Shown here piece after piece: positions 7,861 through 57,250 of a stretch of DNA of 64,000 nt; positions within the stretch are counted from its first letter, which is position 1, and each line of letters starts with the position of its first letter. Origin of the DNA: an uncultured Candidatus Saccharibacteria bacterium (GTDB lineage Bacteria; Patescibacteriota; Doudnabacteria; UBA920); contig CAYTCJ010000003.1 in NCBI GenBank assembly GCA_964436545.1, positions 70,041-134,040 on the forward strand, read 5' to 3'. Under the pieces are notes generated by a model. It did no database searches and was not told the origin of the DNA. It was given only the letters and a program-made list of their open reading frames with translations. The position numbers and the translations under genes were made by a program.

Positions 7861-8053
7861 AGAATAGAGAAAAGCGATTAGAGAAGAGGGGTAAGAGGCA
7901 GACAACCTCTCCCTACCCTCTCCTCATAAGGAGAGGGGGAAAAAAGAAAATACTATTCTCTTTGCACTTTTACACTACTCACTAGCTTTCTGCGCTTTTT
8001 TGGAGGCAGTATGAAGGCCTAACTACTAACTGATAATTGATAACTAATAACTT

Positions 8054-17816: not shown

Positions 17817-18033
17817 TAGGTCATATAGGTCGTATAAGTCGTATAAGTCTTATTTGTCACATATGTCCTATCTGTCGCATATGTCCCATCTGTCTTATTT
17901 GTCCCATACTTCTTTTTTTATATGTCCTATTTGTCTCATCTGTCCTATTTGTCGCATCTGTCCTATTTGTCCCATATTTCATTTTTCTTATTTGTCCTAT
18001 TTGCCACATTTGTCCCATATGTCCTATTGTCAG
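17817..18033. repeat. Array A: ~24 tandem copies of an imperfect 9-bp unit (consensus TNTGTCCYA, e.g. TATGTCCTA/TTTGTCCCA)
   Basis: Direct reading gives ggtcatata ggtcgtata agtcgtata ... tatgtccta tctgtcgca tatgtccca .... The period is strictly 9 bp. The 17854..18210 ORF is a translation artefact of the array. Confidence 0.85.
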
Positions 18034-28100: not shown

Positions 28101-30704
28101 ACAGCCAGTGGCAGGGTGGGGATTGGCACTAACCACACCTCCCCACTGCAGGCTTTGTCGGTAGCTTCGTCTTCACTTTCGGCAATTCCGGCTTTAGGCT
28201 TATCTACTGCCAGTGGGCAATTTTCGGTGTTGGGTGATAGCGGAGCTTATGGTTTAAGGGTGGGTGTTCTATCATCCGGTGATGTTTTCCAACAAGTAGA
28301 TAGATTTGACGGCTCTGCAACTGCTTATAACTTACTCTTACAACCTAGAGGCGGTAAAGTGGGCATTGGCGTAACTTCCGCTTCCCAAACTTTGCACGTT
28401 GTAAGCACAGATGCGGTTGAGCCGACACTTGGCACTGCTCCTTCCTCTGGGGTGTCTATGCTGGGCAGTAATAATGCTTATGGTTTGTTTATTGCCAACA
28501 ATGGAACTTCCGGTGCCACGTGGCTACAAAGTATGAGAAACGACAGTGCAGTAGCTTATGCGTTAAACTTACAGCCCAGTGGCGGGAACGTGGGCATTGG
28601 CACATCTACTCCAGCCCAAAAACTGCATATTAGCGGTTCTGATTTATATACTAACGATTACGGTATTTTAACCATCTCCGATTCCAGCTCACCCAAAAAG
28701 CTAATTTCTATGGGAATGGACGGCACCAATAGTGTGGGACACATTCAAGTCGTTAATAGTGGTTCTGCATATTTGCCTTTGGCTTTAAATGGTAATGGCG
28801 GGAATGTGGGTATTGGCACATCTACGCCATTGGCAACTTTGGAAATTTCCGGCACTTCTCCTTTGAGACTAACCCGTCCCGGACTTAACTCATATAATTC
28901 CACCATATCCGGTTTAATGTCCGGCACTTCCAATGGTGATTTATTGTGGGAAACCAACCAAGCCGACGGTGGTTTTGCTTGGCGGGTAAACAGTGGCAAC
29001 ACTTTTGCTCTGGGCATTACCGAAGCGGGGAATGTGGGGGTGGGGACTTCTACACCAACTCAAAAATTGGTAGTCGTGGGAGGTAATATTCGTCTTTCAA
29101 ATAATCAAAGTTTAATGTTTGGTGACTCGGCTGAGGCTGATGTGCCGTTGATAAAAGTTGATACTAGCAATCAAGCATTGTTTACCAATGGAAATAATGC
29201 CGCCTTTATTTTCTCAACCGGTTTCAGTTCTAATGCCAATAATAACTATATTTTCCAAACCAATGGTGGCACTGAGCGAGTAAGATTTCAATATGATGGG
29301 AATGTGGGTATAGGCACAAGTAGCCCACTTCAAGGTTTGCATATTGGCTCTAACGCCAGTGGTAAGAACGTGCAAGTCGCTAATGGCTGGCTGTGTGTGG
29401 ACAATAACGACTCTTGCACCGGTGCTTCTACGGCCGGCACGGTTTACGCGGTAGGCGCATACACCACCGGTGCGGACGTGGCGGAAAATTATCCAACTAA
29501 CGAAAGTTTAGAAGCCGGAGATGTGGTAATGGCAGATGGTGGTTCTCCCATCTTTGTCAAAAAAGCAAATATGACCAATATGTCCAATACGACCTATAGG
29601 TCCAATGCTGTGCTCGGTGTAGTTTCTACTCAGCCCGGTATTTTATTGAATGGCTATAAAGCCCAAGAGTTTAATAGTGCTTCCACTGTGCCGGTGGCTT
29701 TAAATGGGCGAGTGCCGGTAAAAGTTACTAATGAAAACGGCAATATCAAGATTGGCGACTACTTAACTTTGTCTAAAACTTTCCCGGGCTATGCTATGAA
29801 AGCTGTGCATTCCGGCGAAGTAATTGGTCAAGCTTTGGAAAACTTTGAAAACGAAACTATTGGCACATCAGGTAAAATTTTAGTCTTTATGAGTTTAGGC
29901 TTTAGAAATATTAACAACACTTTTGTCTTAGGCGAAGACGATGGGCAATTGGCTAATGCGACCAGTACACCCCCTCTTTTCCAAAGAGGGGGCAGGGGGA
30001 GTTCATTCTTAATAGATCAACGTGGTTCAGGCAACATCTTACAGCTCCAACAAAACGGGGTAGATAGATTCTTGGTAGCCAATGACGGCACTTTGTCACT
30101 GCTCGCACAAACCGCCTCTACCACCAAAAATATTTTAGAAGTAAAAAATGCTTCCTCCACTGTGTTTGCCATTAACGCTCAAGGCGATGCCCAATTTATT
30201 GGCAAGATTATGGTGAGTAAAAATACGGCTGGTACCGCCGTGGTGAAAGAGGGGGATAATTTAGTGAGAGTGACTTTTGAAAACCCATACCCCAGCGTGC
30301 CCAAGGTAATTGTAAGTGTAAATGGTGTGCCGAATTTCTTTTACGGCGTGGTGGATAAGAGCGAAACCGGATTTACCATTCAGCTAAGCGAACAAACCCA
30401 AAAAGAATTCAGTTTTGATTGGGTGGCATTGGTTCAGCCGGAAAATACCCAGTATGAATCGGGCATAAGCTTTATAGTTTCTGCAAACCCTCCGCCGGCT
30501 GAAACACTGCCTCCGGCTTCCGAAACACCGCCCGCAGAAGAACCACCGGCAGAAACTCCTCCGCCGGCAGAAACTTCTAATCCGGACAATTTAACTAACC
30601 CGCCGGCTTCCGAAACACCACCAGCCGAAGAGACTCCACCGGCAGAAAACACTCCACCGGCAGAAACCGGCGGTGAGGTAGCCGGCACACAAACCGGCCA
30701 ATAA
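19185..30704 (+). CDS. Giant (3839 aa) protein. It has an N-terminal excisionase/MerR-like helix-turn-helix, a coiled coil, one transmembrane helix, a short collagen-like G-X-Y run, ~45 tail-fibre-like beta-helical repeats (GNVGIGTTTP...KL.V), a C-terminal fibre-tip/chaperone-like domain and a PPAET-repeat tail.
   Basis: ISLSEASEKTGYHQDYLGFLCRTGKLEGFKIGRNWVITQSALESFL is HTH_17-like. FLAPSLAMGVAVLAFVSTVAWNYL is the transmembrane helix. GEKGDTGAQGLQGSNGQT is collagen-like. GNVGIGT recurs across ~3000 aa. GTG start at 19185. Confidence 0.85.
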   Translation: MKDTKSKNQNNFISLSEASEKTGYHQDYLGFLCRTGKLEGFKIGRNWVITQSALESFLANNASGQIEAVQTVPVKVIAPSASVPVPEVRAVSQEVEKSKHDLSNLKRKVFEDLNYRIGNLNTQLNELDAKLANSQKAVALPNQVATVSTPVLPAEDFEPKIKPELKTKFASALAVASNLEPEEKTFAPLSVLSKDALLKLKESFRVKARNNFLAPSLAMGVAVLAFVSTVAWNYLQEDLYRNYQTPAVVYKNNFVPQSQPASSTPPVIIQNGNQIVIRDRFTTETVVKSLSADANLVNQLIDQRLNKYLAEGKFKGEKGDTGAQGLQGSNGQTVGAGGYVPYAYYAPVPANNFTGGTSLSSTQLSANSGVITTLSVGDLTTTGNASIGGTLNVSGNTGLSTANITTLNVAGTSNLATTTISQLNISGNATTTGNLTVLGTFNLSGSLSSASGTFSTLVVNGNATTTGNAVVSGNQLISGTLSVVGTSTLATTSLSVLSVSGAQSVIGTSTLATTTITNLSVSGNSTYTGNLTLATMTPGSVIFAGVGGVLNQNNSNFFWDDANKYFNLGTNTISSTLAIQGSGAVNPLTIASSTGTTLLTVLPTGNVGIGTTNPGNKLEVNAGDINIIGSGQAYRQGGSWLIGMLGTSAYVGGGLSGDLQLGANANGQITIKNGGNVGIGTTTPSSRLDVYGAQSAISATIYGGSTVDSARRSGTLALGDDTTAQGRLSYGYGSGVLYLDNTYNHANGDIYVRTQTSGTPVNALVVKGGGNVGIGTTTPGALLQVAGTSANPSNANGQLRISDNSNGIKRLLLGVNTSASTMYSFIQSVEAGNAWRDLVLQQEGGNVGIGTTTPGAKLQIYPNANSTIGLIVQADNNGASNIQQWQQANGTLVAAVGNNGSIGILDGSKILLDGLSGSSYLQESGGLNIVSGSGRDIVLSAGAGGERLRIKNDTGNVGIGTTSPSQALEINGNLRFTNAGSWIDFGNNKSIYNYNNNLNFINGGPSNSVVMTIANSSNVGIATTTPQARLSVQGTGTGGALSFATYNSNAQDILTVTDNANLQIGSTAGNIAGTLTVYNGSSGDFSIAGNTSTGNVTINNANSAGGDINIQTRGTSAIYVKNGGNVGIGTTSPLAKLDVYGNLNVATGSTPTLFVNTATGNVGVNTTNLTDNFTIKPTSAGKGLVIRESDDGNEAIRALGFTAGGLLSLQTGGVNSIYFDATSASGITYFNTGNVGIGTTTPLSKLAVVGTAGANPILDLASSTGTSVLRVAESGNVGIGTASPSAKLDVQGGSGLALIARGGDLGSGTTIFTVQNNSGTGMFSVRGDGGTGIYTGLGIGSTYAGTQPPTNGAIIQGNVGIGTSGPSAPLEVRGTANNGSVQTVQYLINPGTGNGTGAQLAIGYSTSSATQYGAIQGYYDSTLGGTKLGLVAGGTTFLTGDKNGNVGIGTTTPLSKLAVVGTAGANPILDLASSTGTSVLRVSEAGNVGIGTTTPNVGLLINKVGTLYGLSTALQIQTGAILAPNNNGLYTVNAAGTDVVPLIKSDTSNNTWINPGGAGVIRFGAGGSNEYMRLDTNGNLGIGTTTPLTKLVVAGATNSGITPTTGTSLTLDSISTDNYLTVISNSASNAGLIFGSHSSAFTGAVVYNNPNSQMAFKVGGNSTKMVIDSSGNVGIGTTTPTGIIDVVGGNNAYTYFRGASGQPAIRLQKLDSATEFLIRAQSNGTSLENSLGSEHLFITTAGNIGIGTSTPGRTLSVVGDIRATGILYDSSNSAGTSGQFLMTTATGYAWTATSTLFGGNQITGSGTNGYVARFTGANTLSTGVLIDNGTVAGVNATSSSYTFNLQGASGKAPLNIASSTGTSLLVVDQTGNVGIGNTSLFSKLNIIGDIGQYSSSTTSAGSPLGSSLYLGDINFYNSLYYNSAPGLSAVYDSAHNVAAALAFYTYTGNQNSRTEKMRITSAGNVGIGTTSPSAKLAIEGSDVRLNLSDTSGSAQSLIALQSSGATKWFTGKNASNDFIIYDNVASRNALRIAQSGNLFLQEGVGNVGIGTTTPNWKLQVSSSATYNNDAGGAFAITDSTTPTKKIFLGYDASNDVGFINTVQTGVANKNLAINASGGNVGIGTTSMAVKLVVEGNTNLLGTNNDGGVATSALNVNGAFMTIGDYSGAQTFSNGIGIKFNDTGINHMSMKYTPSAGRLDFGPSDTNSYLTINSGQERFSINMTSGNVGIGTTTPQYKLSIDTAGNDYGVVMGQSGSATGKILGLGYFLTGDYGVIQAVHQGTAYKNLAINPNGGNVGIGTASPNDKLEVAGGTTGRVLITDGGGANRKALILEQPGYSGNSYARIEAYDYGASSVKSLAINALGGNVGIGTTTPVSQLEIYQSANVSPQLRIGNNYFNRGIDFGYDTNSAFIQGKADILSAPISYHLALNPNGGNVGIGTTTPSAKLSIAGSTNGIHLGQWSGSSAYNALYLNSSPSVNTTYTLLANDTGSVFLNANGSGSIYLREDNNNLMTIDNNGNVSNVGNLLVGKDASTQDAYIDVGNARSGNGYSYVDIIGDATYTDFGLRLIRGNGGANAYSQLVHRGTGTLSLYTMEASPIEFYTNSSASARMHIASGGNVGIGTTAPGRKLEVNGGTDTTGRIRISGGGGSELISGNLEFYHQTSDHNYNLAMVNNNTLTLFKGTFGATTTPIMTWDGTAGNVGIGTTTPLSKLAVVGTAGANPILDIASSSSTSILRVSHTGNVGIGTTSPAGTLAIKDSLSSSGYSLVINDYYKFRGDGRFNFGNNATQGVLSWDAGIAIVGAQVANDLSLHAGDVEKVRITTAGNVGIGLSSPTARLEVRNSGTGDSAIYVTNTVGGAQATLGAWSSNDGAMRLWKADGTESVRLLANGASHLTGGNLGIGTVSPSFALDVNSNVIGVGTKSANAGYGGQIRYRDDTGTARWMIGLSGSAGATALYNSYNLTNDQVYITTTASGRVGIGTNHTSPLQALSVASSSLSAIPALGLSTASGQFSVLGDSGAYGLRVGVLSSGDVFQQVDRFDGSATAYNLLLQPRGGKVGIGVTSASQTLHVVSTDAVEPTLGTAPSSGVSMLGSNNAYGLFIANNGTSGATWLQSMRNDSAVAYALNLQPSGGNVGIGTSTPAQKLHISGSDLYTNDYGILTISDSSSPKKLISMGMDGTNSVGHIQVVNSGSAYLPLALNGNGGNVGIGTSTPLATLEISGTSPLRLTRPGLNSYNSTISGLMSGTSNGDLLWETNQADGGFAWRVNSGNTFALGITEAGNVGVGTSTPTQKLVVVGGNIRLSNNQSLMFGDSAEADVPLIKVDTSNQALFTNGNNAAFIFSTGFSSNANNNYIFQTNGGTERVRFQYDGNVGIGTSSPLQGLHIGSNASGKNVQVANGWLCVDNNDSCTGASTAGTVYAVGAYTTGADVAENYPTNESLEAGDVVMADGGSPIFVKKANMTNMSNTTYRSNAVLGVVSTQPGILLNGYKAQEFNSASTVPVALNGRVPVKVTNENGNIKIGDYLTLSKTFPGYAMKAVHSGEVIGQALENFENETIGTSGKILVFMSLGFRNINNTFVLGEDDGQLANATSTPPLFQRGGRGSSFLIDQRGSGNILQLQQNGVDRFLVANDGTLSLLAQTASTTKNILEVKNASSTVFAINAQGDAQFIGKIMVSKNTAGTAVVKEGDNLVRVTFENPYPSVPKVIVSVNGVPNFFYGVVDKSETGFTIQLSEQTQKEFSFDWVALVQPENTQYESGISFIVSANPPPAETLPPASETPPAEEPPAETPPPAETSNPDNLTNPPASETPPAEETPPAENTPPAETGGEVAGTQTGQ

Positions 30705-30970
30705 GACAAATAGGACGAATAGGACAAATAGGACGAATGGGACAAATAAGACAAATGGGATGAATAAGATGAATGGGACAAGCTGGCGAATAGAAAATAA
30801 GCAAAAAGACAATAAGACAAATAAGACAAATAGGTCGAATGGGACAAATAAGACAAATGGGATGAATGGGACAAGCTGTCAAATAGAAAAAAAGCAATAA
30901 GACATATGGGACAAATAAGACAATATGACCTATACGTCATATTTGTCCTATAAGTCCTATACGACCTATA
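30701..30970. repeat. Array B: ~28 tandem 9-bp units in reverse-complement orientation relative to array A (GACAAATAG/GACGAATGG), flipping orientation at its 3' end
   Basis: It begins at the stop codon of the giant gene: taaGACAAATAGGACGAATAGGACAAATAG.... The last ~40 bp read catatttgtcctataagtcctatacgacctata. The 30434..30940 ORFs are artefacts. Confidence 0.85.
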
Positions 30971-30995
30971 ACATATAAAATTAAAACAAAATTTT

Positions 30996-31637: not shown

Positions 31638-31762
31638 TCCATAGGACGAATATGTGTCCGATAAGTCCTATACGACAATAAGACAATATGACCTATACGT
31701 CATATTTGACCTATTGGTCCTATAAGACATATACGACCTATAAGACCTATTCGTCCTATGGC
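31622..31762. repeat. Array C: ~15 tandem 9-bp units of the same family in mixed orientation
   Basis: The reading is ataggacga atatgtgtccgata agtcctata cgacaataa gacaatatg acctatacg tcatatttg acctattgg tcctataag .... It spans the stop of 30996..31637 and abuts the stop of the 31765..32250 gene. Confidence 0.8.
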
Positions 31763-31764
31763 TG

Positions 31765-32250
31765 TTAAAACAGTTTTTCCAAGTCTTCCGTCAGGTTAAT
31801 CTCTTGAGTTTTAATTAGGCGGATAAAAAATTTCTTTCCCAGTTCTAAAAATTCTTTTTCAATCTCTTTGTCCAATTCATAGGGAGAGGCCCAAATAGAG
31901 TTCTGCCACTTTTTAAAACCTAACTGCTTTAGTTTGGCTCTTAAAATGTTTCTTACAGCCTTGTGTTTTTCCGGCACATCAAAAATGACCAGTTTCCACA
32001 TGCCATCTTTTTTCGGCACTTTAATTTTTAACAAGGTTAAGCCTTCAGATGTAATTTTCCCCAAGAGTTTATCTTGCTCGTTTTTTTTCTCCACCAAGCC
32101 CGCGCTAATCATGCGGAATAAGGCATTATAAAATTCTTTATAGCTTAGGGTGGGGGCTAAGATTCTATGGAGCGTGGTAAAAGCCACCCAATCGTTTTTT
32201 TGGAGAAAATGTAAAGTGTTAATGGTGAGTTGGTTAAAGGGACGGGACAT
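31765..32250 (-). CDS. winged-helix + PaaX-C/Cas2-like domain protein (mini PaaX-like regulator or nuclease-fold protein)
   Basis: The C-terminal motif is MWKLVIFDVPEKHKAVRNILRAKLKQLGFKKWQNSIWASPYEL, of the form W.LV.FD[IV]PE...R..LR..L...GF...Q.S[IV]W.SP. The N-terminal ~80 aa are winged-HTH-like. Confidence 0.55.
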   Translation of the reverse strand: MSRPFNQLTINTLHFLQKNDWVAFTTLHRILAPTLSYKEFYNALFRMISAGLVEKKNEQDKLLGKITSEGLTLLKIKVPKKDGMWKLVIFDVPEKHKAVRNILRAKLKQLGFKKWQNSIWASPYELDKEIEKEFLELGKKFFIRLIKTQEINLTEDLEKLF

Positions 32251-35152: not shown

Positions 35153-35233
35153 GTCAACCCCGTTAGAAGTCGGATGCCTTAGGCATCCGCTGTCCCGATT
35201 TTACGCGGGACAGACTTCTAACGGGGTCAACCC
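35153..35233. other. Structured three-way-junction inverted-repeat element with 8-bp flanking direct repeats (MITE-like or small structured RNA)
   Basis: A 14-bp outer stem CCCCGTTAGAAGTC / GACTTCTAACGGGG encloses two perfect hairpins, GGATGCCT-T-AGGCATCC and CTGTCCCG-ATTTTACG-CGGGACAG. GTCAACCC occurs directly repeated at both flanks (35153-35160 and 35226-35233). Confidence 0.5.
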
Positions 35234-35304
35234 AGTAGGTAGAATCACCTTGTTAGATAAAAGGTTATTAGACTTGATTCATTTACACAGAATTAGCCAG
35301 ACGG

Positions 35305-38371: not shown

Positions 38372-39511
38372 ATGACATCCGAATTAATTCTTAAAGACGG
38401 CACACGGTACGAAGGAGTGAGTTTTGGTGCCAATCTCCCTGCTTTTGGCGAAGTGGTGTTTATTACCGGTATGGTCGGGTATCCGGAATGTTTTACCGAC
38501 CCCAGTTTTAAGGGGCAAATTTTGGTAATGACCTATCCGCTGTTGGGAAATTACGGGGTGCCAGACAAAAAAACTTGGGAGTCAGACAGAGTTCAAATTT
38601 CCGGTTTGGTAGTGTGCAATTATATAGACACGCCGAGTCATTACACCTCTCAGCAAACTTTAGCCCAGTGGCTCAAACAACAAGGAGTGCCGGCTTTGGA
38701 AATTAAAGATACACGGGGTTTGACGCAAAAATTAAGAACACACGGAGTAATGCTGGGACGTTTTGTCATTCCGGCCAAGTCCCGACTAAATTCGGGACAC
38801 GAGCCGGAATCTAAAAAAATAGATTCCCTCCGTGGGTTGGCGGATCGCGGGAATGACAAAGAGCAAGAATTTCAGGATCCCAACCTGCGTAATTTGGTGG
38901 CTGAAGTTTCCTGTAAAAAACCTTATATGGTTGAAAACCGCAATCCTTCGACTTCACTCAGGGCAGGAAAAACTGTGGCGTTAATTGATTGCGGAGCCAA
39001 ATTTAATATTGCGCGTTCGTTAGCTAAACGGGGAGTAAAAGTGTTAGTGGTGCCCTGGCAGACCGATGTTTTGAAATTAAAACAGAAAATTCATGGTGTA
39101 ATGATTTCCAACGGACCGGGCGACCCACAAATGGCTAAAGCCACGATTGAAAATGTGAGAAAAATTTTAGCTAAAAAATTGCCCACGTTTGGGATTTGTT
39201 TAGGCAACCAGATTTTAGCACTGGCAGGCGGAGGCACCACGTATAAACTTAAGTTTGGCCACCGAGGGCAAAACCAGCCGGCGGTGTTAGCGGGCACCCA
39301 CAAAGCTTACTTAACGACGCAAAACCACGGGTTTGCCGTGGGAAAAATCCCCAAAGGTTTTAGAGAATGGTTTTATAATGGGAACGATAAGACCAACGAG
39401 GGGATTATTCACAAGAGCTTGCCGTTTATGTCGGTGCAGTTTCATCCCGAAAGCTACCCGGGCCCAACCGATACCGATTGGTTGTTTGATGAATTTATAA
39501 AAAAATTGTAA
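38372..39511 (+). CDS. carA: carbamoyl-phosphate synthase small (glutaminase) subunit
   Basis: GICLGNQILALAGGG is the class-I glutamine-amidotransferase Cys motif. HGFAV and HPE give the triad context. Confidence 0.9.
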   Translation: MTSELILKDGTRYEGVSFGANLPAFGEVVFITGMVGYPECFTDPSFKGQILVMTYPLLGNYGVPDKKTWESDRVQISGLVVCNYIDTPSHYTSQQTLAQWLKQQGVPALEIKDTRGLTQKLRTHGVMLGRFVIPAKSRLNSGHEPESKKIDSLRGLADRGNDKEQEFQDPNLRNLVAEVSCKKPYMVENRNPSTSLRAGKTVALIDCGAKFNIARSLAKRGVKVLVVPWQTDVLKLKQKIHGVMISNGPGDPQMAKATIENVRKILAKKLPTFGICLGNQILALAGGGTTYKLKFGHRGQNQPAVLAGTHKAYLTTQNHGFAVGKIPKGFREWFYNGNDKTNEGIIHKSLPFMSVQFHPESYPGPTDTDWLFDEFIKKL

Positions 39512-39536: not shown

Positions 39537-42500
39537 ATGAAAAAATTTAAAAAAATTCTTATCTTAGGCAGTGGGGCGCTTAAAATCGGCGAGGCCGGGG
39601 AGTTTGATTATTCCGGCAGTCAAGCCATTAAAGCCTTAAAAGAAGCGGGGATTAAGTCCGTGTTAATTAATCCCAATATTGCCACTTTTCAGACCTCGAA
39701 AGCTTTAGCCAACCAAGTGTATTTTTTGCCGGTAAACCCTTATTTTGTGGAACAAGTTATAAAGAAAGACAGGCCCGATGGCATCTTGTTGTCTTTTGGC
39801 GGGCAGACGGCTTTAAATTGCGGTTTGGCTTTGGAAAAATCCGGCGTATTAAAAAAATATCACGTGCAAGTTTTAGGCACGCCGGTTAAATCCATTGAGC
39901 TTACCGAAGACCGCCAAATGTTTGCCGATCATTTAAAAACCCTCAATATTCCGGTGCCGGTAAGCGGTACTGCCACCACTTTAGCCGAGGCGCAAAAAGT
40001 TGCCGAGCAGATTGGTTTGCCGGTAATGGTGCGGGCAGCGTTTACTTTGGGCGGACAAAAATCCGGCGTAGCCAAAACCGCTAAACAATTAAAGGAAATT
40101 GTGAATGGCGCTTTGGCAGTAAGTCCACAAGTGTTAATTGAAAAATATTTACATCACTATAAAGAAGTGGAATACGAAGTGGTGAGAGATAGGTTTGATA
40201 ACTGTGTGACCGTGTGTAATATGGAAAATTTTGACCCTTTGGGCATCCACACCGGAGATTCCATAGTCATTGCGCCGAGTCAGACTTTAACTAATCACGA
40301 GTACCATAGCTTAAGAGAAGCTTCCATAAAAATTGTTAAATCTTTAGGGATTGTGGGCGAATGCAACGTACAGTTTGCCTTGAATCCACGCGGACTAACG
40401 CGAAATTTAACGCGGACTAAAGCGGAAGCTGTAGGTTCCTCCCCCCTTGTGGGGGAGGCTAGGAGGGGGGATCAACCGGACTATTATGTGATTGAGGTCA
40501 ATGCCCGGCTTTCAAGATCCTCTGCGCTGGCTTCCAAAGCTACGGGCTATCCTTTGGCGTATGTGGCAGCCAAGTTAGCTTTGGGTAAAAGTTTGCTGGA
40601 AGTGCAAAATAAAATTACCCAAGTTACTCAAAGTTTTTTTGAACCGGCTTTAGACTATGTGGTGGTTAAAATGCCTCGTTGGGATTTGGAAAAATTTAAA
40701 GGTGCGGAAGAAAAAATCGGTTCGGCAATGAAGTCAGTCGGTGAGGTTATGGCGATTGGCAGAAATTTTGAAGAAGCCCTGCAAAAAGCGGTGCGAATGC
40801 AATCGGGTCAAACCGAAAGCATTACCGATAACGGTTTTGCCAATCATACTGCCATTAAAGAATTTTTAACCACTCCGACGCCTCGCCGGGTCTTTGCTGT
40901 GTCAGCAGGTTTAAAAGCCGGCATGTCAGTAAAGACGATTCATAAGTTAACCGGCATTGACCCTTGGTTTTTATACCGAATAAAAAATATTGTAGACGCG
41001 GAGAGGGAACTGATAAACCCAACCGGTAATTCCCTCCCCCCTGTGGGGACGGTTAGAGCTAGCCCCGTACTTGATACGGGGGAGAGGGTAAAGATTGAGC
41101 ATCAGACTTTGTTAAACCTTAAACGATTGGGTTTTTCCGACAAAAAAATTGGCCAGCTGTGTGGCCAGACCGAATTTGCCATTAGACGTTTGCGTAAGGC
41201 TTACCAAATTCATCCTTCCATTTTTCAAATTGATACTTTAGCCGGCGAAGTGCCGGCGCAGACCAATTATTTGTATCTTACATACCATGGCGGGCATAAC
41301 GATGTAAAACCTCTGGGTAAAAATGCGGTTTTGGTTTTAGGTAGCGGACCTTACCACATTGGCAGTAGCGTGGAATTTGATTGGTCGTGTGTGCATGCGG
41401 CTTTGCAATTAAAAAAACATCGGAAACATTCGGTAATCATTAATTGTAATCCGGAAACCGTATCTACCGATTACGATATGTCCGACCGACTGTATTTTGA
41501 AAATTTGTCTTTTGAAACCGTGGCGGATATTTTTGAATGGGAACACGCCGGGGGTTTGGTAATTTCCGTGGGCGGGCAAAGGCCTAACAATTTAGCGAAA
41601 AAATTATCCCGGGAAGGGTTTAAACTCCTTGGGACTTCGGCAGAGAATATTGACCGCGCGGAAGACCGAGTAAAATTTTCGGCTTTGTTGGATAAGCTGG
41701 GGATTTTGCAACCCAAGTGGGAAAGTTTTTCCAACTTAAAGACTGCGGAAAAATTTGCGGAAATGGTAGGTTATCCGGTTTTGGTGCGTCCGTCGTATGT
41801 GCTGTCCGGCAGTGCCATGAGCGTGTGTTATAACCAGGCTCAGCTGGAAACTTTTTTAAGTAAAGCGGTAGTCTTAGGCGCCGAGCATCCGGTGACCATT
41901 TCCAAATTTGTAGAAAACGCTAAAGAATTGGAGTTCGATGCCGTGGCGCAAAACGGCCAGTTAATGATTTATGCCATTTCCGAACACGTGGAAAATGCCG
42001 GAGTGCACAGCGGGGATGCCACGATTGTGTATCCCACGCAAAGAGTGTATGCGTCCACCGAGTTTCAGTTAAGGCAAATTGCCAAAAAAATCGCGCGGGA
42101 ATTAAAAGTAACGGGTCCCTTTAACATTCAGTTTTTAGTTAAAGATAACAAGCCTTCGGTAATTGAGGTGAATTTGCGGGCGAGTCGAACTTTTCCGCTT
42201 TTGTCCAAAGCTTTAGACGCCAATTTTCCGGAAATGGCAGTGGATGCGTTTTTTGGCAAAGCCAAAAAATTTGATTACGAATACCCCAACCGTGTAGTTG
42301 TTAAGTCGCCTCAATTTTCTTTTGCTCGGCTAAGCGGAGCAGATCCGGTGTTGCGAGTGGAAATGTCTTCTACCGGAGAAGTGGCGGCTTTTGGGCGCAC
42401 TTATGACGAAGCGTTAATTAAGTCCATTATGTCCGCGAATAATTTTAGTTTTGCCAAGAAGCAAGTGTTATTATCTTTGGGCGGGGAGTTAAATAAAGTC

Positions 42501-42893
42501 AAATTTGTGGAATCGGCTCAGATTTTACAAACTTTAGGGTATACGATTTTTGCCACCGATAGCACAGCCAAATTTTTAACCAGTCAAGGGCTTAAGTGCC
42601 AAACGGTAAAAAAGGTTTCCGAAGGTTCGCCGAATGTGGTGGATTTGGTGCAAAGCAAAACTGTGGCTTTTGTGGTAAACTTAAGTCAGCAGAGCGTAAG
42701 AACCGCCCCGAGCCGGCAACATCAACATTTAACCGACGGTTACCATATTCGGCGAGCCACGGTAGATAACCAAATTCCTTTGTTTACCGATTTGCATTTG
42801 GCCCGAGCGTTTATTAAAGCTTTAAGTAATTTTAAATTAGAAGATTTGGAAATAAAAAGTTATAAAGAATATTTAAAAAATGACAAAAGTTAA
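39537..42893 (+). CDS. carB: carbamoyl-phosphate synthase large subunit, with two in-frame GC-rich insertions
   Basis: MKKFKKILILGSGALKIGEAGEFDYSGSQA... with duplicated ATP-grasp halves. Extra segments relative to the conserved ...NPR/VIEVNARLSRSSALASKATG context lie at 40386-40492 and 41022-41092. Confidence 0.93.
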   Translation: MKKFKKILILGSGALKIGEAGEFDYSGSQAIKALKEAGIKSVLINPNIATFQTSKALANQVYFLPVNPYFVEQVIKKDRPDGILLSFGGQTALNCGLALEKSGVLKKYHVQVLGTPVKSIELTEDRQMFADHLKTLNIPVPVSGTATTLAEAQKVAEQIGLPVMVRAAFTLGGQKSGVAKTAKQLKEIVNGALAVSPQVLIEKYLHHYKEVEYEVVRDRFDNCVTVCNMENFDPLGIHTGDSIVIAPSQTLTNHEYHSLREASIKIVKSLGIVGECNVQFALNPRGLTRNLTRTKAEAVGSSPLVGEARRGDQPDYYVIEVNARLSRSSALASKATGYPLAYVAAKLALGKSLLEVQNKITQVTQSFFEPALDYVVVKMPRWDLEKFKGAEEKIGSAMKSVGEVMAIGRNFEEALQKAVRMQSGQTESITDNGFANHTAIKEFLTTPTPRRVFAVSAGLKAGMSVKTIHKLTGIDPWFLYRIKNIVDAERELINPTGNSLPPVGTVRASPVLDTGERVKIEHQTLLNLKRLGFSDKKIGQLCGQTEFAIRRLRKAYQIHPSIFQIDTLAGEVPAQTNYLYLTYHGGHNDVKPLGKNAVLVLGSGPYHIGSSVEFDWSCVHAALQLKKHRKHSVIINCNPETVSTDYDMSDRLYFENLSFETVADIFEWEHAGGLVISVGGQRPNNLAKKLSREGFKLLGTSAENIDRAEDRVKFSALLDKLGILQPKWESFSNLKTAEKFAEMVGYPVLVRPSYVLSGSAMSVCYNQAQLETFLSKAVVLGAEHPVTISKFVENAKELEFDAVAQNGQLMIYAISEHVENAGVHSGDATIVYPTQRVYASTEFQLRQIAKKIARELKVTGPFNIQFLVKDNKPSVIEVNLRASRTFPLLSKALDANFPEMAVDAFFGKAKKFDYEYPNRVVVKSPQFSFARLSGADPVLRVEMSSTGEVAAFGRTYDEALIKSIMSANNFSFAKKQVLLSLGGELNKVKFVESAQILQTLGYTIFATDSTAKFLTSQGLKCQTVKKVSEGSPNVVDLVQSKTVAFVVNLSQQSVRTAPSRQHQHLTDGYHIRRATVDNQIPLFTDLHLARAFIKALSNFKLEDLEIKSYKEYLKNDKS
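40386..40492. repeat. In-frame GC-rich hairpin insertion 1 in carB
   Basis: ACGCGGACTAA occurs twice, followed by the hairpin CCTCCCCCC-TTGT-GGGGGAGG and then AGGAGGGGGGATCAACCGG. It encodes RGLTRNLTRTKAEAVGSSPLVGEARRGDQPD. Confidence 0.5.
41022..41092. repeat. In-frame GC-rich hairpin insertion 2 in carB (related to insertion 1)
   Basis: AACCGGTAATTCCCTCCCCCCTGTGGGGACGG is followed by the hairpin CCCCGTA-CTTGA-TACGGGG. It shares CCTCCCCCCT.GTGGGG and AACCGG with insertion 1. It encodes PTGNSLPPVGTVRASPVLDTGER. Confidence 0.5.
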
Positions 42894-42983: not shown

Positions 42984-43901
42984 ATGAACCACATTCTTAC
43001 CGGTAAACAATTTGCCGATAAAAATTTATTAGATAAGCTGTTTGCCAAAGCTGTAGAATTAGAACAGGCGGATTTAAACGGGGGTATGCCCAAAACTTTG
43101 GCCGGCAAAGTGGTGGCTACTCTATTTTTTGAATCCAGTACTCGAACTCGGTTGTCGTTTGAATCCGCAACTTTGCGTTTGGGAGGCAATATTATTTCCG
43201 TGGCTGATGCTAAAACTTCCTCTATGTCCAAAGGTGAGAGCATAGAAGATACCATTAAGGTAGTTTCCGGTTATGCTGATGCGATTATTTTACGTCATCC
43301 GGAAAATGGGGCCGCGGAAAAAGCGGCTAAAGTGTCCCTTGTGCCCATTATTAATGCCGGCGATGGATTTAATGAGCATCCCACGCAAGCTTTAATGGAT
43401 TTGTTCACTATGCAAAAAGAATTGGGGAGAGTGGAAAATTTAAAGATCGCTTTTTTGGCAGATATGCGCTATCAACGAAATATTCACTCTTTGTCCGCAA
43501 TGTTTGGAGTGTATGAGGGAGTAAAATTATATTTAATCGGGCCGAAAGATTTGCGTTTACCCGAACGGTATAAACAGCAATTAGTGGCTAACAGGGTAGA
43601 ATTTACGGAACTGGAAACTTTAGACTCGGTTTTGCCGGAAATAGATGTGTTGTATGTGGCGAGAGTCTTTAAAGAAAGATTTGCCGAAGAAGCCGAATAT
43701 GAACGTTTAAAACAAGCGTTTTTTGTAGATTTAGCCACCGTGGCCAAAATGAAACAGCAATCCGCCATTCTTCACGTAATGCCGAGGGTTTACGAAATTG
43801 ACCCACAAGTCGATGCCGACCCCAGAGCGGCATATTTCCGCCAAGCTAAAAATGGGCTGTATATCCGCTCCGCCCTTTTGTTGCATGCCCTAGGCTATTA
43901 A
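42984..43901 (+). CDS. pyrB: aspartate carbamoyltransferase catalytic subunit
   Basis: STRTRLSFE is the carbamoyl-phosphate-binding signature. HPTQAL and the rest fit. The ORF track begins at 42942, but those first 14 codons translate the intergenic repeat, so the start is more likely MNHILTGKQF at 42984. Confidence 0.88.
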   Translation: MNHILTGKQFADKNLLDKLFAKAVELEQADLNGGMPKTLAGKVVATLFFESSTRTRLSFESATLRLGGNIISVADAKTSSMSKGESIEDTIKVVSGYADAIILRHPENGAAEKAAKVSLVPIINAGDGFNEHPTQALMDLFTMQKELGRVENLKIAFLADMRYQRNIHSLSAMFGVYEGVKLYLIGPKDLRLPERYKQQLVANRVEFTELETLDSVLPEIDVLYVARVFKERFAEEAEYERLKQAFFVDLATVAKMKQQSAILHVMPRVYEIDPQVDADPRAAYFRQAKNGLYIRSALLLHALGY

Positions 43902-43916
43902 TTTTTTTATATTTTA

Positions 43917-43952
43917 TTACCAATTATCTTACATATGTAAGATAATTGGTAA
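43917..43952. repeat. 36-bp perfect palindrome, copy 1
   Basis: TTACCAATTATCTTACATATGTAAGATAATTGGTAA, centred on CATATG. Confidence 0.85.
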
Positions 43953-43985
43953 AGTTTAAAAAGTTACCTATACAATATAAACCTT

Positions 43986-44642
43986 TTAAATTATAGATTT
44001 AAAATGATGCTTTAATCTGTGTTCGTCTTCCGGGTCCAGATTAGTTGCCTCTAGAAATGTAATATAAGGATCCAAACCATAGTATTTGCTGAGAAAAGCC
44101 AATTCATCGCGGGGGTCAAAAGGATAGACCCAAATTGATTTTTGAAAACTATAGGCCCCAATGGATTTTATCTTTTTTCTGAATGAGTTAATTTGACTCC
44201 TGAATTCAATCGGTATATCGGCTAAGATGAACCACCAAGTTTTTTTCCACTGGTTATTTTTGGGCAGTGAAAGACTTTGTAAATTAAGTAATTTGAGTTT
44301 TTTCCTTCCTTTTTGAGTAATTTTTACTAAAAAATCATCACCTTTAGGCAGAAGTTGGATATAGTTATGTTGCCTAAGGTAATAAATAACTCGACTAATT
44401 TTCTTTTTTGACCTTTTGGTTTGGTGTAAATACCCTTTAGTATATTTTTGATTTGGTAGCAATTTTAACAGTTTTAGTGCATTTGGAGCCACTAAAGCCA
44501 CAGTAGTTATGCCTAGAGAAGCAATGACTCCTAAAGTGATTGCTGACATATCTTTTAATCTTGAGACTTGTTCCGGAGTTAGATTTAAAAGCGGTTTAGG
44601 CAAATTGGCCTCAATGATTTTTGCCAGTGATGCTTTGCTCAT
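43986..44642 (-). CDS. membrane-anchored winged-helix + PaaX-C/Cas2-like domain protein (paralogue of 31765..32250)
   Basis: The C-terminal TWWFILADIPIEFRSQINSFRKKIKSIGAYSFQKSIWVYPFD carries the same motif as the 161-aa protein. The hydrophobic segment AITLGVIASLGITTVALVAP is transmembrane-like. Confidence 0.5.
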   Translation of the reverse strand: MSKASLAKIIEANLPKPLLNLTPEQVSRLKDMSAITLGVIASLGITTVALVAPNALKLLKLLPNQKYTKGYLHQTKRSKKKISRVIYYLRQHNYIQLLPKGDDFLVKITQKGRKKLKLLNLQSLSLPKNNQWKKTWWFILADIPIEFRSQINSFRKKIKSIGAYSFQKSIWVYPFDPRDELAFLSKYYGLDPYITFLEATNLDPEDEHRLKHHFKSII

Positions 44643-44679
44643 ATTATTTTTATTTTATATTTTTTTAGTTTAAAATTGC

Positions 44680-44719
44680 TTTTACCAATTAACTTACATA
44701 TGTAAGTTAATTGGTAAAA
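44680..44719. repeat. 40-bp perfect palindrome, copy 2
   Basis: TTTTACCAATTAACTTACATATGTAAGTTAATTGGTAAAA. Confidence 0.85.
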
Positions 44720-44792
44720 TATGTTAAATTAGGATTTTGGTTGGACGTGGGGATAAATTAGGTATAAATAATTTCTTAAGAATCCATTAATA

Positions 44793-45503
44793 CTAGACCT
44801 CAGAAATATTGGTAAAAATTTGGTAGTGTTTGGTTTTAACCACTCCCGCAATGGGTAAGTGGTTAATTTGCGCTTGACCGGCCAACAATTCTTTAAATTT
44901 GGCCTGTTTTTCTGATCCGCAAATAAATACAATGGCTTCATCAATATATTTAAATAAATTAAAAGTTGCGGTTACCCGTTCCGGGTATTTATGGGTGGTG
45001 TCCGCGCGGTATGCGGTAATGAGGTGTGAATTTTCAAAAGCAGTTTCAAAAAATTTAACGTCTGAACTGGGGAAAATGCCGGCGGTGTGGCCATCGGGCC
45101 CCATACCCAGAGTGGCGAAAACTTTACCTTGAGGGTGTTGATTTAGCCAATTGGTAATCCCAATTTCCAAACGGGTTTGCATGTCGTTTAGGTTTTCGTT
45201 TAAGCGGGGGAGCGTGCCAATAAAATTAGCATTGGCATTTAAGGCTAAAGTATAAAAATCTAATTTTTGAAGCTGTAAAAAATTATTGGCTTCAGGTTCT
45301 TGGCTAAAGCGTTCATCGAGCAGAGTAATGGTTAAATTTTCACCCATGCTGGATGCATCAATAAAATCTAAAATGGAAAAAGCCGATCCGGCAGAAAGTA
45401 AAAGTAAAATGGGGCTGGATTTATTCTCGGCTAATAATTTATTTAAAGCTTCACCGGCGCCGGCCGTAGCTTCGGCTTGGCTTTGAAATTTATTTATTTT
45501 CAT
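44793..45503 (-). CDS. pgl: 6-phosphogluconolactonase (NagB/Pgl/DevB sugar-phosphate isomerase fold)
   Basis: ATLGMGPDGHTAGIFP matches the Pgl motif GMG.DGHTAS.FP. Confidence 0.7.
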   Translation of the reverse strand: MKINKFQSQAEATAGAGEALNKLLAENKSSPILLLLSAGSAFSILDFIDASSMGENLTITLLDERFSQEPEANNFLQLQKLDFYTLALNANANFIGTLPRLNENLNDMQTRLEIGITNWLNQHPQGKVFATLGMGPDGHTAGIFPSSDVKFFETAFENSHLITAYRADTTHKYPERVTATFNLFKYIDEAIVFICGSEKQAKFKELLAGQAQINHLPIAGVVKTKHYQIFTNISEV

Positions 45504-45951: not shown

Positions 45952-46361
45952 TGGTGGAGATGCCGGGAGTTTAACCCGGGTCCAACATTTATCTATCTTT
46001 TTATTCTTCACAAGCTTAGTTAGCTTAATATCCGCCAAAGGCGGACTTTAATGTTTGTTAGCTAACCAAACAACATTAAAGTTGATTTAGAATGCCTTAG
46101 GTATGTTAGTCTAAATCATGCCAACATATCGCATCCCAAAATAAGCTTGGGGATCTTTTCTTTGGGAGAAGAAAAGGCCAAGTGTTGTTACCTATTAGGC
46201 TACAACAGGAACTAAATCGGCAGCTTTAAAGGCGGCAACGACTTTGTTCCAAGAGTTTTCTATAGCATTTATAGATGCTTGGGGTAGTTTAACGAGATAG
46301 TCCAAGCTTGCTCGTCTTGCATATAAAAAGATGTCAAAGTGCTGTCAAAAACCGTCATCCC
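45952..46361 (-). ncRNA. ssrA: tmRNA (SsrA)
   Basis: The minus-strand 3' end GGACCCGGGTTAAACTCCCGGCATCTCCACCA matches the tmRNA tRNA-like 3' end consensus GGAC.CGGGTTCAACTCCCGCCAGCTCCACCA. The 5' end GGGGATG pairs with CATCTCC to form the acceptor stem. The candidate tag reading frame is ...GCCGCCUUUAAAGCUGCCGAUUUAGUUCCUGUUGUAGCC-UAA-UAG (AAFKAADLVPVVA, double stop). Confidence 0.7.
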
Positions 46362-46486
46362 CATAAACCATTGGCATAGTATCAAGTTTTAGGTTTAAAT
46401 GCAATGGTTCTATGGTATAAATTTGATTTTTTGGGTTATAATTTATTATAATAATTAATATAAATTATTAAACTTAATTAATAGTT

Positions 46487-50450: not shown

Positions 50451-50882
50451 TTAGAATGTTTTCCTAATTTCTCTTTCCATATCTCGTTTTTTTATGGTTT
50501 CGCGTTTGTCCGTTTGCTTTTTGGCTTTGCCAATGCCCAGTTTGATTTTTAGCCAACCTTTGGGCGTAGTAAAAATTTCCAAAGGCACAATCACCAAACC
50601 TTTTTCTTTGCCCAATAATTCGTTGATTTCTTTTTGTTGTAAAAGCAATTTACGGGTTTGGGTGGGGTTGTAGCCGGTTTGGTGAGCGTATTTGTAAGCT
50701 CCAATATGAGCATTGATTAAATTGACGGAATTGTTTGCCGTGGTTACATAAGCGCCAATTAAAGACACATTGCCGTTTTTTATACTTTTGACTTCTGCGC
50801 CGGTTAATACCAAACCTGCCACGAAAGTGTTTTTAATTTCGTAGTCAAAATAAGCTCGTTTGTTGGTTGCTAATGTGGACAT
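50451..50882 (-). CDS. smpB: SsrA-binding protein SmpB
   Basis: NKRAYFDYEIKNTFVAGLVLTGAEVKSIKNGNVSLIGAYV...TRKLLLQQKEINEL matches the SmpB consensus. Confidence 0.9.
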   Translation of the reverse strand: MSTLATNKRAYFDYEIKNTFVAGLVLTGAEVKSIKNGNVSLIGAYVTTANNSVNLINAHIGAYKYAHQTGYNPTQTRKLLLQQKEINELLGKEKGLVIVPLEIFTTPKGWLKIKLGIGKAKKQTDKRETIKKRDMEREIRKTF

Positions 50883-57212: not shown

Positions 57213-57250
57213 TGTACCAATTAACTTACATATGTAAGTTAATTGGTACA
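57213..57250. repeat. 38-bp perfect palindrome, copy 3, between ileS and recO
   Basis: TGTACCAATTAACTTACATATGTAAGTTAATTGGTACA. Confidence 0.85.

Follow-up and report, generated by a model that had tools for sequence, protein, structure and literature searches.

Palindromic repeat modules, probably of mobile origin, in two loops of the carbamoyl-phosphate synthase large subunit of a Patescibacteria bacterium

Palindromic repeats that lie in frame within housekeeping genes have been seen as mainly a Rickettsia peculiarity. Yeast mitochondria carry the 'byps', GC-rich mobile hairpin inserts in AT-rich genes, which disrupt the reading frame and which the ribosome bypasses, and REP sequences are known by the signature GTAG ... 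CTAC. Rickettsia palindromic elements (RPEs; Ogata et al. 2000, 2002) are given as ~150 bp in PMC10969869. REPIN populations are described as vertically inherited within lineages (PMC3116915, PMC3337134). Prokaryotic MITEs, including the intragenic ERIC elements, occasionally integrate in frame into ORFs (PMC10969869). For in-frame repeat insertion outside Rickettsia, a 2024 review offers conjecture only (PMC10969869), and our full-text literature searches returned nothing on in-frame palindromic repeats for Patescibacteria.

We examined a 64-kb stretch of Patescibacteria (CPR) DNA (the window), in which carB, encoding the carbamoyl-phosphate synthase large subunit (1118 aa), occupies 39537..42893 on the + strand. 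Its identity was established from the ORF list, from PDB matches (CPS1, E = 0; E. coli CarB, 4e-234) and from Patescibacteria orthologues, which are 70-86% identical to the window CarB. Insert boundaries were set by alignment with human CPS1 and 120 Patescibacteria orthologues, gathered as full-length proteins. Two inserts face gaps in CPS1 and in E. coli CarB: INS1 (40389..40478, + strand; aa 285-314, RGLTRNLTRTKAEAVGSSPLVGEARRGDQP), with 31 residues between anchors vs a modal 8 among the orthologues (~+23 residues), and INS2 (41019..41093, + strand; ~aa 495-519, PTGNSLPPVGTVRASPVLDTGERVK), with 34 vs a modal 12 (~+22 residues). The initial annotation had proposed two extra in-frame segments here, and indeed the frame is kept and there is no stop codon in either. 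It had placed them at 40386-40492 and 41022-41092; the alignment moves these limits to the coordinates above, and likewise replaces its estimates of about 26 and 20 added residues.

INS1 falls at the turn joining strands ECNVQFAL and YYVIEVNARL. AlphaFold2 predicts coil there, between the confidently predicted E274-282 and E316-322, with pLDDT <50 over aa 287-310. The insert stops a few residues short of the VIEVN strand, which aligns with the IEMN strand of E. coli CarB (window CarB residue 317 to E. coli 296), a strand that carries metal-binding residues. INS2 falls between helices H476-493 and H522-530, both confidently predicted, and is again coil, with pLDDT <50 over aa 497-516. Both inserts are thus predicted to be disordered and to lie in unstructured loops, in keeping with an early expectation of surface loops. 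A placement of INS2 inside the ATP-grasp region was mistaken: its flanking helices are C-terminal of the first ATP-grasp unit, a position which we take to correspond to the oligomerisation domain of E. coli CarB. The inserts are GC-rich as claimed (0.60 for INS1 and 0.59 for INS2, vs 0.433 in the remaining carB, in a genome whose surrounding sequence is 42% GC), but other 60-nt windows of carB likewise reach 0.55-0.60, so composition alone is not exceptional, and we dropped GC-richness as stand-alone evidence of insertion.

Both loops are short in the majority of the orthologues (~75/120), and the modal length is found in ~83/120 at site 1 and ~74/120 at site 2. In 44/120, one loop or both carry an insertion of some kind, with sequences that differ; at least six extra residues occur in 27/120 at site 1 and in 28/120 at site 2, again with varied sequences. 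By this alignment the two window segments are extra relative to most orthologues. All the insert variants seen in the orthologue set are in frame and free of stop codons, an observation biased by the recovery of these orthologues as full-length proteins. In the closest relative, L002 (86% aa identity), an unrelated Y-shaped element occupies the INS1 site. Sites 1 and 2 of carB are insertion hot spots with turnover. The comparison with orthologues that had been recommended at the outset therefore favours inserted elements, since most orthologues lack the segments, site 1 differs in L002, and the modules described below recur elsewhere.

Two unrelated modules make up INS1, module A forming its 5' half and one unit of module B its 3' half. 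Module A (40389..40434, + strand), recognised by alignment and an nhmmer profile, is an imperfect tandem repeat of the unit ACGCGGACTAA(C/A)GCG(A/G)AA and encodes RGLTRNLTRTKAEAVG; its direct repeat had been correctly read in the initial annotation, with ACGCGGACTAA present twice, at 40388-40398 and 40410-40420. The profile matches window positions 40381-40440 with E = 1.9e-14, the window copy being itself among the six sequences used to build it. This ACGCGGA-type repeat is also found at carB loop 2 in three relatives (L003, L001 and L233), and in L232 at both the carA linker and carB loop 1, in 2-3 copies. Module A is not a palindrome, and its L003 copy has no significant structure (z = -0.7).

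Module B (40435..40472, + strand; GTTCCTCCCCCCTTGTGGGGGAGGCTAGGAGGGGGGAT; GC 0.68), delimited by exact matches elsewhere, consists of a C-arm, loop, G-arm, CTAGG and a second G-arm. Reading of the sequence and a hairpin search both give a perfect hairpin at 40438..40458 (+ strand), which is real as first noticed but has an 8-bp stem (CCTCCCCC/GGGGGAGG) and the 5-nt loop CTTGT rather than a 9-4-8 arrangement. The GTAG lying 2 nt upstream of module B in the window is part of module A, and is missing from the high-GC copies of module B. Among the predicted tryptic peptides that would span the inserts is AEAVGSSPLVGEAR.

INS2 is a degenerate unit of the module B type with a nested hairpin. The latter, CCCCGTA-CTTGA-TACGGGG (41063..41081, + strand), found by the same two means, is perfect, with a 7-bp stem and 5-nt loop exactly as first described; within INS2 it has the spacer TTAGAGCTAG on one side and the G-rich arm GGGGGAGAGGG on the other. 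The 5' part of INS2 resembles the first hairpin unit of the L001 INS1 when that unit is read on its reverse strand (93% over 28 nt). A block common to both window inserts, also part of the first description, holds up as an exact match of 10 nt, or as 13 nt with 92% identity. INS1 and INS2 are related at the family level only, by a common arm-loop-arm-TAG-G-arm layout and ~13-28 nt of similar sequence.

The inserts are able to form hairpins. Compared with shuffles, fold scores are z = -2.5 for INS1 and -1.6 for INS2, while the L002 INS1 reaches -5.3 as RNA and members of its Y family (below) reach -8 to -11 as DNA, with inner stems that covary; GGAGG motifs are visible within module B. Better folding than shuffles, covariation and such motifs might be seen in a functional nucleic-acid element, either an mRNA or DNA hairpin serving as stabiliser, pause site, attenuator or G-quadruplex, or a segment that is removed or bypassed, for which the models are the translational hop of T4 gene 60 and the mitochondrial 'byp' elements. 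We consider a function of this kind very improbable. Site contents are wholly different between close relatives, which speaks against any conserved function in carB, and no T-run follows the hairpins on their 3' side. Rfam gave no family at threshold in the region, or in the whole window except tmRNA, the best match otherwise (E = 0.77) being far under the gathering score. Both inserts are multiples of 3 nt with no stop codon, so no translational bypass is needed.

Module B has a wide distribution. In a genome scan, at least 120 stretches, drawn from many phyla, contained the 21-mer hairpin of INS1. Shuffles put the number of chance matches to this 21-mer at 0. One metagenome contig (L162) matches module B exactly over 38 nt and three others (L134, L136 and L151) over 37 nt; all are high-GC, the range for contigs exactly matching the module being 0.58-0.70, vs 42% for the genome around the window. 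The module proves to be the end of a ~100-nt three-stem palindromic repeat found in 50 high-GC metagenome contigs. Among 51 metagenome contigs having a 22-mer in common with it, 50 are high-GC, and the sole exception, of low GC, is the carB of L001. Among the high-GC relatives of module B, copies are arranged in inverted pairs, 70-180 nt apart, and further relatives lie on Rhizobiales and other plasmids under no annotated gene in the PLSDB gene tables, which are incomplete. A literature search that included the RIME and Sm-repeats found no name for it.

In the Patescibacteria sequences that we compared, module B is at carB site 1 only, in the window and in L001, a 77%-identical orthologue, where 35 nt of it are identical; the L001 INS1 has two inverted units and the window INS1 a single one. 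Such confinement is as compatible with shared ancestry or a foreign origin as with in-genome transposition. BLAST found no plasmid match for modules A, C and Y, the window INS2, the carA insert or the L234 INS1, which makes module B the odd one out among modules otherwise without a match in plasmids of other taxa. Perhaps, then, module B and possibly other pieces are a repeat fragment of a high-GC, Alphaproteobacteria-like neighbour or host, taken up, patched into carB by break repair or recombination, and kept because the loop tolerates it. The identity over 38 nt, the GC contrast, the high-GC contigs and the single site all suit this capture, which we nevertheless hold to be unlikely. The same 35 nt are found in the same loop of two CPR lineages, which calls for two captures, or for an inherited block conserved with unusual perfection. 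Modules A, C and Y are clearly multi-copy within CPR genomes, so a resident repeat population exists, and copies of module B in CPR genomes are possible beyond those among the matches listed. In a more specific form, a REPIN-like fragment of high-GC Alphaproteobacteria-type bacteria would have been built into the loop of an essential CPR enzyme, and tiny palindromic repeats would cross phyla; we think this rather unlikely.

The identity of module B to sequence from high-GC organisms, in a window that is part of a metagenome-assembled genome, might also come from an assembly or binning artefact, that is, a chimeric join of high-GC reads into the CPR contig. The insert is only 38 nt, however, in frame and with carB sequence on both flanks; a second sample, assembled independently (L001/L127), has the same block in the same loop, and comparable inserts are seen in dozens of independently assembled orthologues. 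An artefact is extremely improbable.

Related elements lie nearby. The carA gene has an extra linker segment (38765..38866, + strand; aa 132-165, VIPAKSRLNSGHEPESKKIDSLRGLADRGNDKEQ), recognised from the CPS1 alignment and its DNA fold (z = -5.1), with ~27 residues more than human CPS1 and with nested stems ATTCCGGC/GCCGGAAT and GTCCCGA/TCGGGAC. It is common to L002; other relatives differ there, L232 having module A. At 35155..35234 (no strand assigned) is an intergenic Y-shaped palindromic element with outer stem ACCCCGTTAGAAGTC/GACTTCTAACGGGGT and two inner hairpins, whose DNA fold has z = -11. Its family comprises this copy, the in-frame copy at carB loop 1 of L002, and a third, intergenic in L232. 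The outer stem, a 15-bp terminal inverted repeat, is identical over its 15 nt between intergenic and in-frame copies. Two copies are flanked on both sides by TCAAC, possibly part of the element, and the carB copy by TTAAC/TGAAT. We rejected the 35155-35234 element as a case of presence in the window and absence in L002, where the orthologous place has a shorter hairpin with an ACCCCG/CGGGGT base. A scan of viral contigs with a 14-mer of the Y element gave 57 single unpaired matches, taken as chance.

Module C, with the layout GTAG, hairpin, spacer, hairpin, CTAC, was found in three full copies. L234 has at least four copies in 23 kb, three of them in frame (two in pyrC and one in carB) and one at the end of a PaaX_M gene, and L003 has copies directly upstream of carB. 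The carB site 1 insert of L234 starts with GTAG and ends with CTAC. Both module C and module B provide cases of one element readable in different frames and orientations. The host genes of in-frame copies are thus carB, at two loops, in the window, and carA, pyrC and carB in the relatives. Across the window, GC-rich hairpins with a stem of at least 7 bp number 36 stem/loop solutions (25 distinct) vs 1.7 expected. By sequence comparison, the same DNA modules recur at further sites, genes and genomes, in frame as well as between genes.

This dispersal bears on whether the loops could have lengthened where they are. Slippage or template switching might expand C- and G-runs (AAC CCC ... GGN) into palindromes and so give lineage-specific loops with no mobility; the junctions of the inserts do use the CCC of conserved Asn-Pro codons, loop length is variable across many lineages, and INS2 is apparently common to L002 in diverged form. 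Yet the same modules are found at different loops and genes, the Y family has an identical 15-nt outer stem whether its copies are intergenic or in frame, and a local process cannot produce an exact match of 38 nt to foreign repeats. The dispersed copies already largely contradict in-situ expansion, which we judge improbable.

The segments are probably short non-autonomous palindromic repeats, of the REP/REPIN/MITE kind, that were fixed in permissive CarB loops and are translated through. Against a mobile repeat counts the outcome of the search for further copies that had been suggested for this genome: neither insert recurs in the 64-kb window, where module A, module B and INS2 are each present once. 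No clean target-site duplications were seen, and INS1 and INS2 are without clear ends. The 29 window ORFs scanned, from 39 of at least 120 aa, include no Y1 transposase gene. Near carB in L001 and L232 there are Y1 genes, which passed the IS200 model (149 and 117 bits; cutoff 55) and failed the RAYT model (29 and 20 bits; cutoff 80). We gave up the idea of a RAYT as mover, as these genes are IS200-type with unrelated end hairpins and none is among the scanned window ORFs. A 57-aa query of the concatenated insert peptides brought no candidate among other host proteins, and the 30-aa INS1 peptide had two matches only in the protein library; one of these, P0122, has recurring SSPLVGEVRRGE-type stretches and resembles an ORF that reads through a tandem array of repeats of this sort.

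If the segments are repeats of this kind, they may have spread by transposition or recombination that depends on hairpins or single-stranded DNA, candidate movers being HUH/Y1 transposases of the IS200/IS605 or RAYT type. Selection would remove insertions elsewhere, leaving only these loops to show them, and palindromes may attract nested insertions, so that the same loops would be reused. The inserts would be translated as disordered, solvent-exposed loop extensions, nearly neutral for CarB.

The wider point is that several unrelated repeat families lie inside pyrimidine-pathway genes (pyrC, carA and carB) of a Patescibacteria clade, with few loops reused. If this is general, part of the odd protein length variation of CPR bacteria would be explained, the 'insertions' in CPR alignments may be selfish DNA rather than adaptations, and a natural map of insertion-tolerant CarB loops would be at hand. 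CPR cells are ultra-small and believed to rely on other cells and on DNA taken up from outside. The 38-nt identity with repeats of high-GC bacteria raises the question of DNA traffic into these cells; were the cross-phylum reading true, such fragments would record DNA donors and be a source of new CPR protein segments.

Among known systems, the Patescibacteria inserts are like byps in being GC-rich, hairpin-forming and placed in protein-coding genes of a lower-GC genome; unlike byps they leave the frame intact and are free of stop codons, and read-through is sufficient. Like MITEs they are small and non-autonomous, and the Y family has a terminal inverted repeat of 15 bp. That many lineages reuse the same two loops is not known as a MITE feature in the literature consulted. 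With REPs and REPINs, which RAYT tyrosine transposases mobilise, they have in common the short imperfect palindromes, often in inverted doublets (PMC3116915, PMC3337134). Module C and the L234 site 1 insert are bounded by GTAG/CTAC, and inverted units are seen in the L001 INS1, in module C and in the high-GC relatives of module B, whereas the window INS1 is single and INS2 degenerate. REPs are extragenic by definition and the copies under study are inside coding sequence; unlike a REP/RAYT system, no RAYT gene was found in the sequences examined, and unlike REPINs, module B is common across phyla.

The likeness to RPEs, suggested from the first, is one of mode and not a family assignment: the Patescibacteria inserts probably work like RPEs, their units being much shorter. 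As in RPEs (PMC10969869), palindromic families lie in frame in unrelated housekeeping or metabolic genes and are read through as extra peptide; insert positions are compatible with the fold, several families co-exist, and the host genome is small and reduced, as in the RPE accounts cited. Unlike those, the host is Patescibacteria rather than Rickettsia, and units are 38-75 nt vs the ~150 bp given for RPEs (PMC10969869). The Patescibacteria inserts also differ in being GC-rich within a 42% GC genome, modular and nested, in that one element can be read in several frames and orientations, and in that one module is exactly common to other phyla.

The carB ORF (39537-42893, + strand, 1118 aa) lies in a pyrC-carA-carB-pyrB cluster, and its product matches solved carbamoyl-phosphate synthetases over the full length, human mitochondrial CPS1 (1035 bits) outscoring E. 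coli CarB (783 bits). Among its closest database relatives, at 70-86% identity, the named ones carry the labels Patescibacteria, Nomurabacteria, Paceibacteria or Doudnabacteria, which assigns the window to a CPR bacterium. Two extra segments, INS1 (aa 285-314, 40389-40478, + strand) and INS2 (about aa 495-519, 41019-41093, + strand), were delimited by gaps against CPS1 and by inter-anchor lengths in orthologues. The HMMER alignment to CPS1 breaks at query 286/315 and shows a gap of ~20 residues near query 500-519. Loop lengths were taken from the 120 best CarB orthologues, aligned with MAFFT: the window has 31 residues from the ALNP to the DYYVIEVNARL anchor against a modal 8, and 34 from AE(K/R) to LLxLK against a modal 12. 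INS1 occupies a beta-hairpin turn that the VIEVN strand closely follows, and INS2 separates a pair of helices that lie C-terminal of the first ATP-grasp unit. AlphaFold2 (70-sequence alignment, mean pLDDT 77) rendered aa 287-310 and 497-516 as coil with pLDDT < 50, flanked by confident strands (E274-282, E316-322) and helices (H476-493, H522-530) respectively; both inserts are therefore predicted to be floppy loops.

The initial annotation had described these segments as related, GC-rich, in-frame hairpin insertions, and we confirm this, with minor corrections. The carB reading frame is intact through both, the direct repeat ACGCGGACTAA occurs twice when the sequence is read directly, sequence comparison recovered a short block common to both segments, and a hairpin with a 7-bp stem is present at 41063-41081. 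The hairpin at 40438-40458 is also present, but with an 8-bp stem and a 5-nt loop rather than the arms first drawn. GC content is 0.60 in INS1 and 0.59 in INS2 against 0.433 in the rest of carB, a real difference, yet other parts of carB are as GC-rich.

CarB length variation among the orthologues comes mostly from the loops that hold INS1 and INS2 (sites 1 and 2). At least six extra residues were found at site 1 in 27 of the 120 and at site 2 in 28; 44 have an insertion at either site and 11 at both, and the inserted sequence at both sites varies by lineage. Related lineages lack the segments seen in the window, which, by the refutation criterion of the initial annotation, favours inserted elements over shared loops. 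Site 1 differs even in the closest relative (CarB protein P0002 of the stretch L002, 86% aa identity), where it holds a perfect Y-shaped palindrome unrelated to INS1 (RNA fold z = -5.3). Pairwise alignment of L002 with the window (12 kb) revealed more differences that bear hairpins, among them 75 nt inserted in frame in the L002 pyrC. A structured extra segment is likewise present in the window's carA linker. Relatives have in-frame hairpin inserts of their own in pyrC, which encodes a dihydroorotase-like amidohydrolase (L002 8103-8177; L234 7827-7894 and 8249-8319); two of these occupy one loop, about aa 265-290, and the pyrC inserts point to further insertion hot spots outside carB. Because different, unrelated modules occupy the same loops, we infer that tolerance (selection), perhaps together with nesting into earlier palindromes, explains the hot spots better than target specificity does.

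Several recurring DNA units were distinguished among the inserts of the window and its Patescibacteria (CPR) relatives. At the DNA level, module A (40389-40434, + strand), which encodes RGLTRNLTRTKAEAVG, can be aligned with carB site 2 inserts of L003, L001 and L233 and with two L232 inserts, one in the carA linker and one at carB site 1; its core hairpin is also intergenic in L232. An nhmmer profile of module A gave E-values of 1e-10 to 1e-16 on the profile's own source sequences, independent support coming from BLAST and alignment. Module C has the layout GTAG, hairpin, spacer, hairpin, CTAC. Three of its copies are in frame inside a 4-kb stretch of L234, one in carB and two in pyrC; L234 has another where a PaaX_M gene ends, and L003 has copies immediately upstream of carB. 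Since the copies do not all use the same reading frame, homology lies in the DNA rather than in the peptide. In the Y family, the 15-nt outer stem is identical between an intergenic window copy (35155-35234) and the in-frame L002 carB copy, a third copy being intergenic in L232, while the two inner hairpins differ in sequence and keep their pairing. None of these non-B modules matched the plasmid collection.

Module B (40435-40472, + strand) consists of a C-rich arm, loop, G-rich arm, CTAGG and second G-rich arm. Site 1 of L001 carB, whose protein is only 77% identical to that of the window, has 35 nt of it unchanged, paired with another unit in inverted orientation. INS2 starts with a degenerate unit of module B layout, CCCTCCCCCC-TGT-GGGGACGG-TTAG..., which has a nested hairpin ahead of its G arm and shares 93% identity with the inverted L001 unit over 28 nt. 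In this sense INS1 and INS2 are related by family layout, their direct similarity being weak. The 21-nt hairpin of module B alone occurs in at least 120 reference-genome stretches; the matches listed include Bradyrhizobium, Devosia, Microvirga, Sphingomonas, Planctomycetota, Elusimicrobia, Dehalococcoidia and others, and among them the spacer and second G arm nearly always come next after the hairpin, which often occurs in inverted pairs 70-180 nt apart. The window variant GGGGGAGGCTAGGAGGGG was found in 51 metagenome contigs, 50 of them at 58-70% GC, and in those 50 it forms the left-hand end of a ~100-nt three-stem palindrome; the sole low-GC contig holds the carB of L001. Related copies on annotated plasmids (Rhizobium, Sinorhizobium, Pannonibacter and others) lie outside every gene annotated in PLSDB, whose gene tables are incomplete. 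A literature search found no published name for this repeat. In the CPR DNA examined, module B stands only at carB site 1, in two lineages. High-GC bacteria nonetheless have repeats identical to it, the window copy matching exactly over 37-38 nt. Independent capture of foreign DNA would account for that identity, but we consider it improbable; module B may be an old insertion kept unusually intact, or may belong to a repeat family with CPR copies beyond the genome matches listed.

Other features of the window are as follows. (i) A 9-nt unit, AATAGGACA or its complement GTCCTATTT, forms arrays of ~10-20 copies at 17847-18028, 30700-30874, 30897-30971 and 31661-31759, in opposite orientation on the two sides of a giant repeat gene (19185-30704; 3839 aa) with at least 22 copies of a ~56-62-nt coding repeat, GGnAAYGTGGGnATTGGCAC (GNVGIGT). 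The first array is inside no ORF of at least 120 aa; those at 30700-30971 share sequence with ORF 30434-30940 and with the end of the giant ORF. (ii) A segment of ~890 nt in the region 43881-44803 is absent from L002 and edged by a 34-nt palindrome, TACCAATTAnCTTACATATGTAAGnTAATTGGTA, at 43918 and 44683, with a third copy at 57215. It contains a small ORF (43986-44642, - strand) whose product has a PaaX_M/Cas2-like domain, and it resembles a small mobile cassette. Another PaaX_M ORF lies at 31765-32250, and the positions of such ORFs vary among L232, L233 and L234. (iii) An ORF of 699 aa (5745-7844, - strand), in which a weak TIG domain is recognised, sits in an island of 59% GC (6001-8000; window 42%) with a cluster of GC-rich hairpins; it may have been horizontally acquired. 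(iv) The tmRNA gene (Rfam RF00023, 119 bits) and smpB are nearby, at 45952-46362 and 50451-50882 (both - strand).

As to mobilisation, GTAG-flanked hairpin doublets recall REP/REPIN sequences; however, no Y1 transposase gene was found among the ORFs scanned in the window, and the only ones near carB in relatives are of IS200 type, within ~10 kb of the gene in L001 and L232 (L232 21724-22152). L001 also has a GIY-YIG ORF between carA and carB (coordinates listed for it and the Y1 gene: L001 4919-5215, 15047-15484). The inserts match no known RNA family. Since the reading frame is intact, they are probably translated. The observations fit short non-autonomous palindromic repeats that would end up in a small number of loops able to accommodate additional residues in an essential enzyme, and would there be read through by translation. 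The resemblance first proposed is supported as an analogy to Rickettsia palindromic elements (RPEs) rather than as membership in the RPE or REP/RAYT families. The inserts are a known kind of element, here in a phylum for which the literature searched holds no earlier description: they are like RPEs, described as palindromic repeats read through in tolerated positions (PMC10969869), in their way of working.
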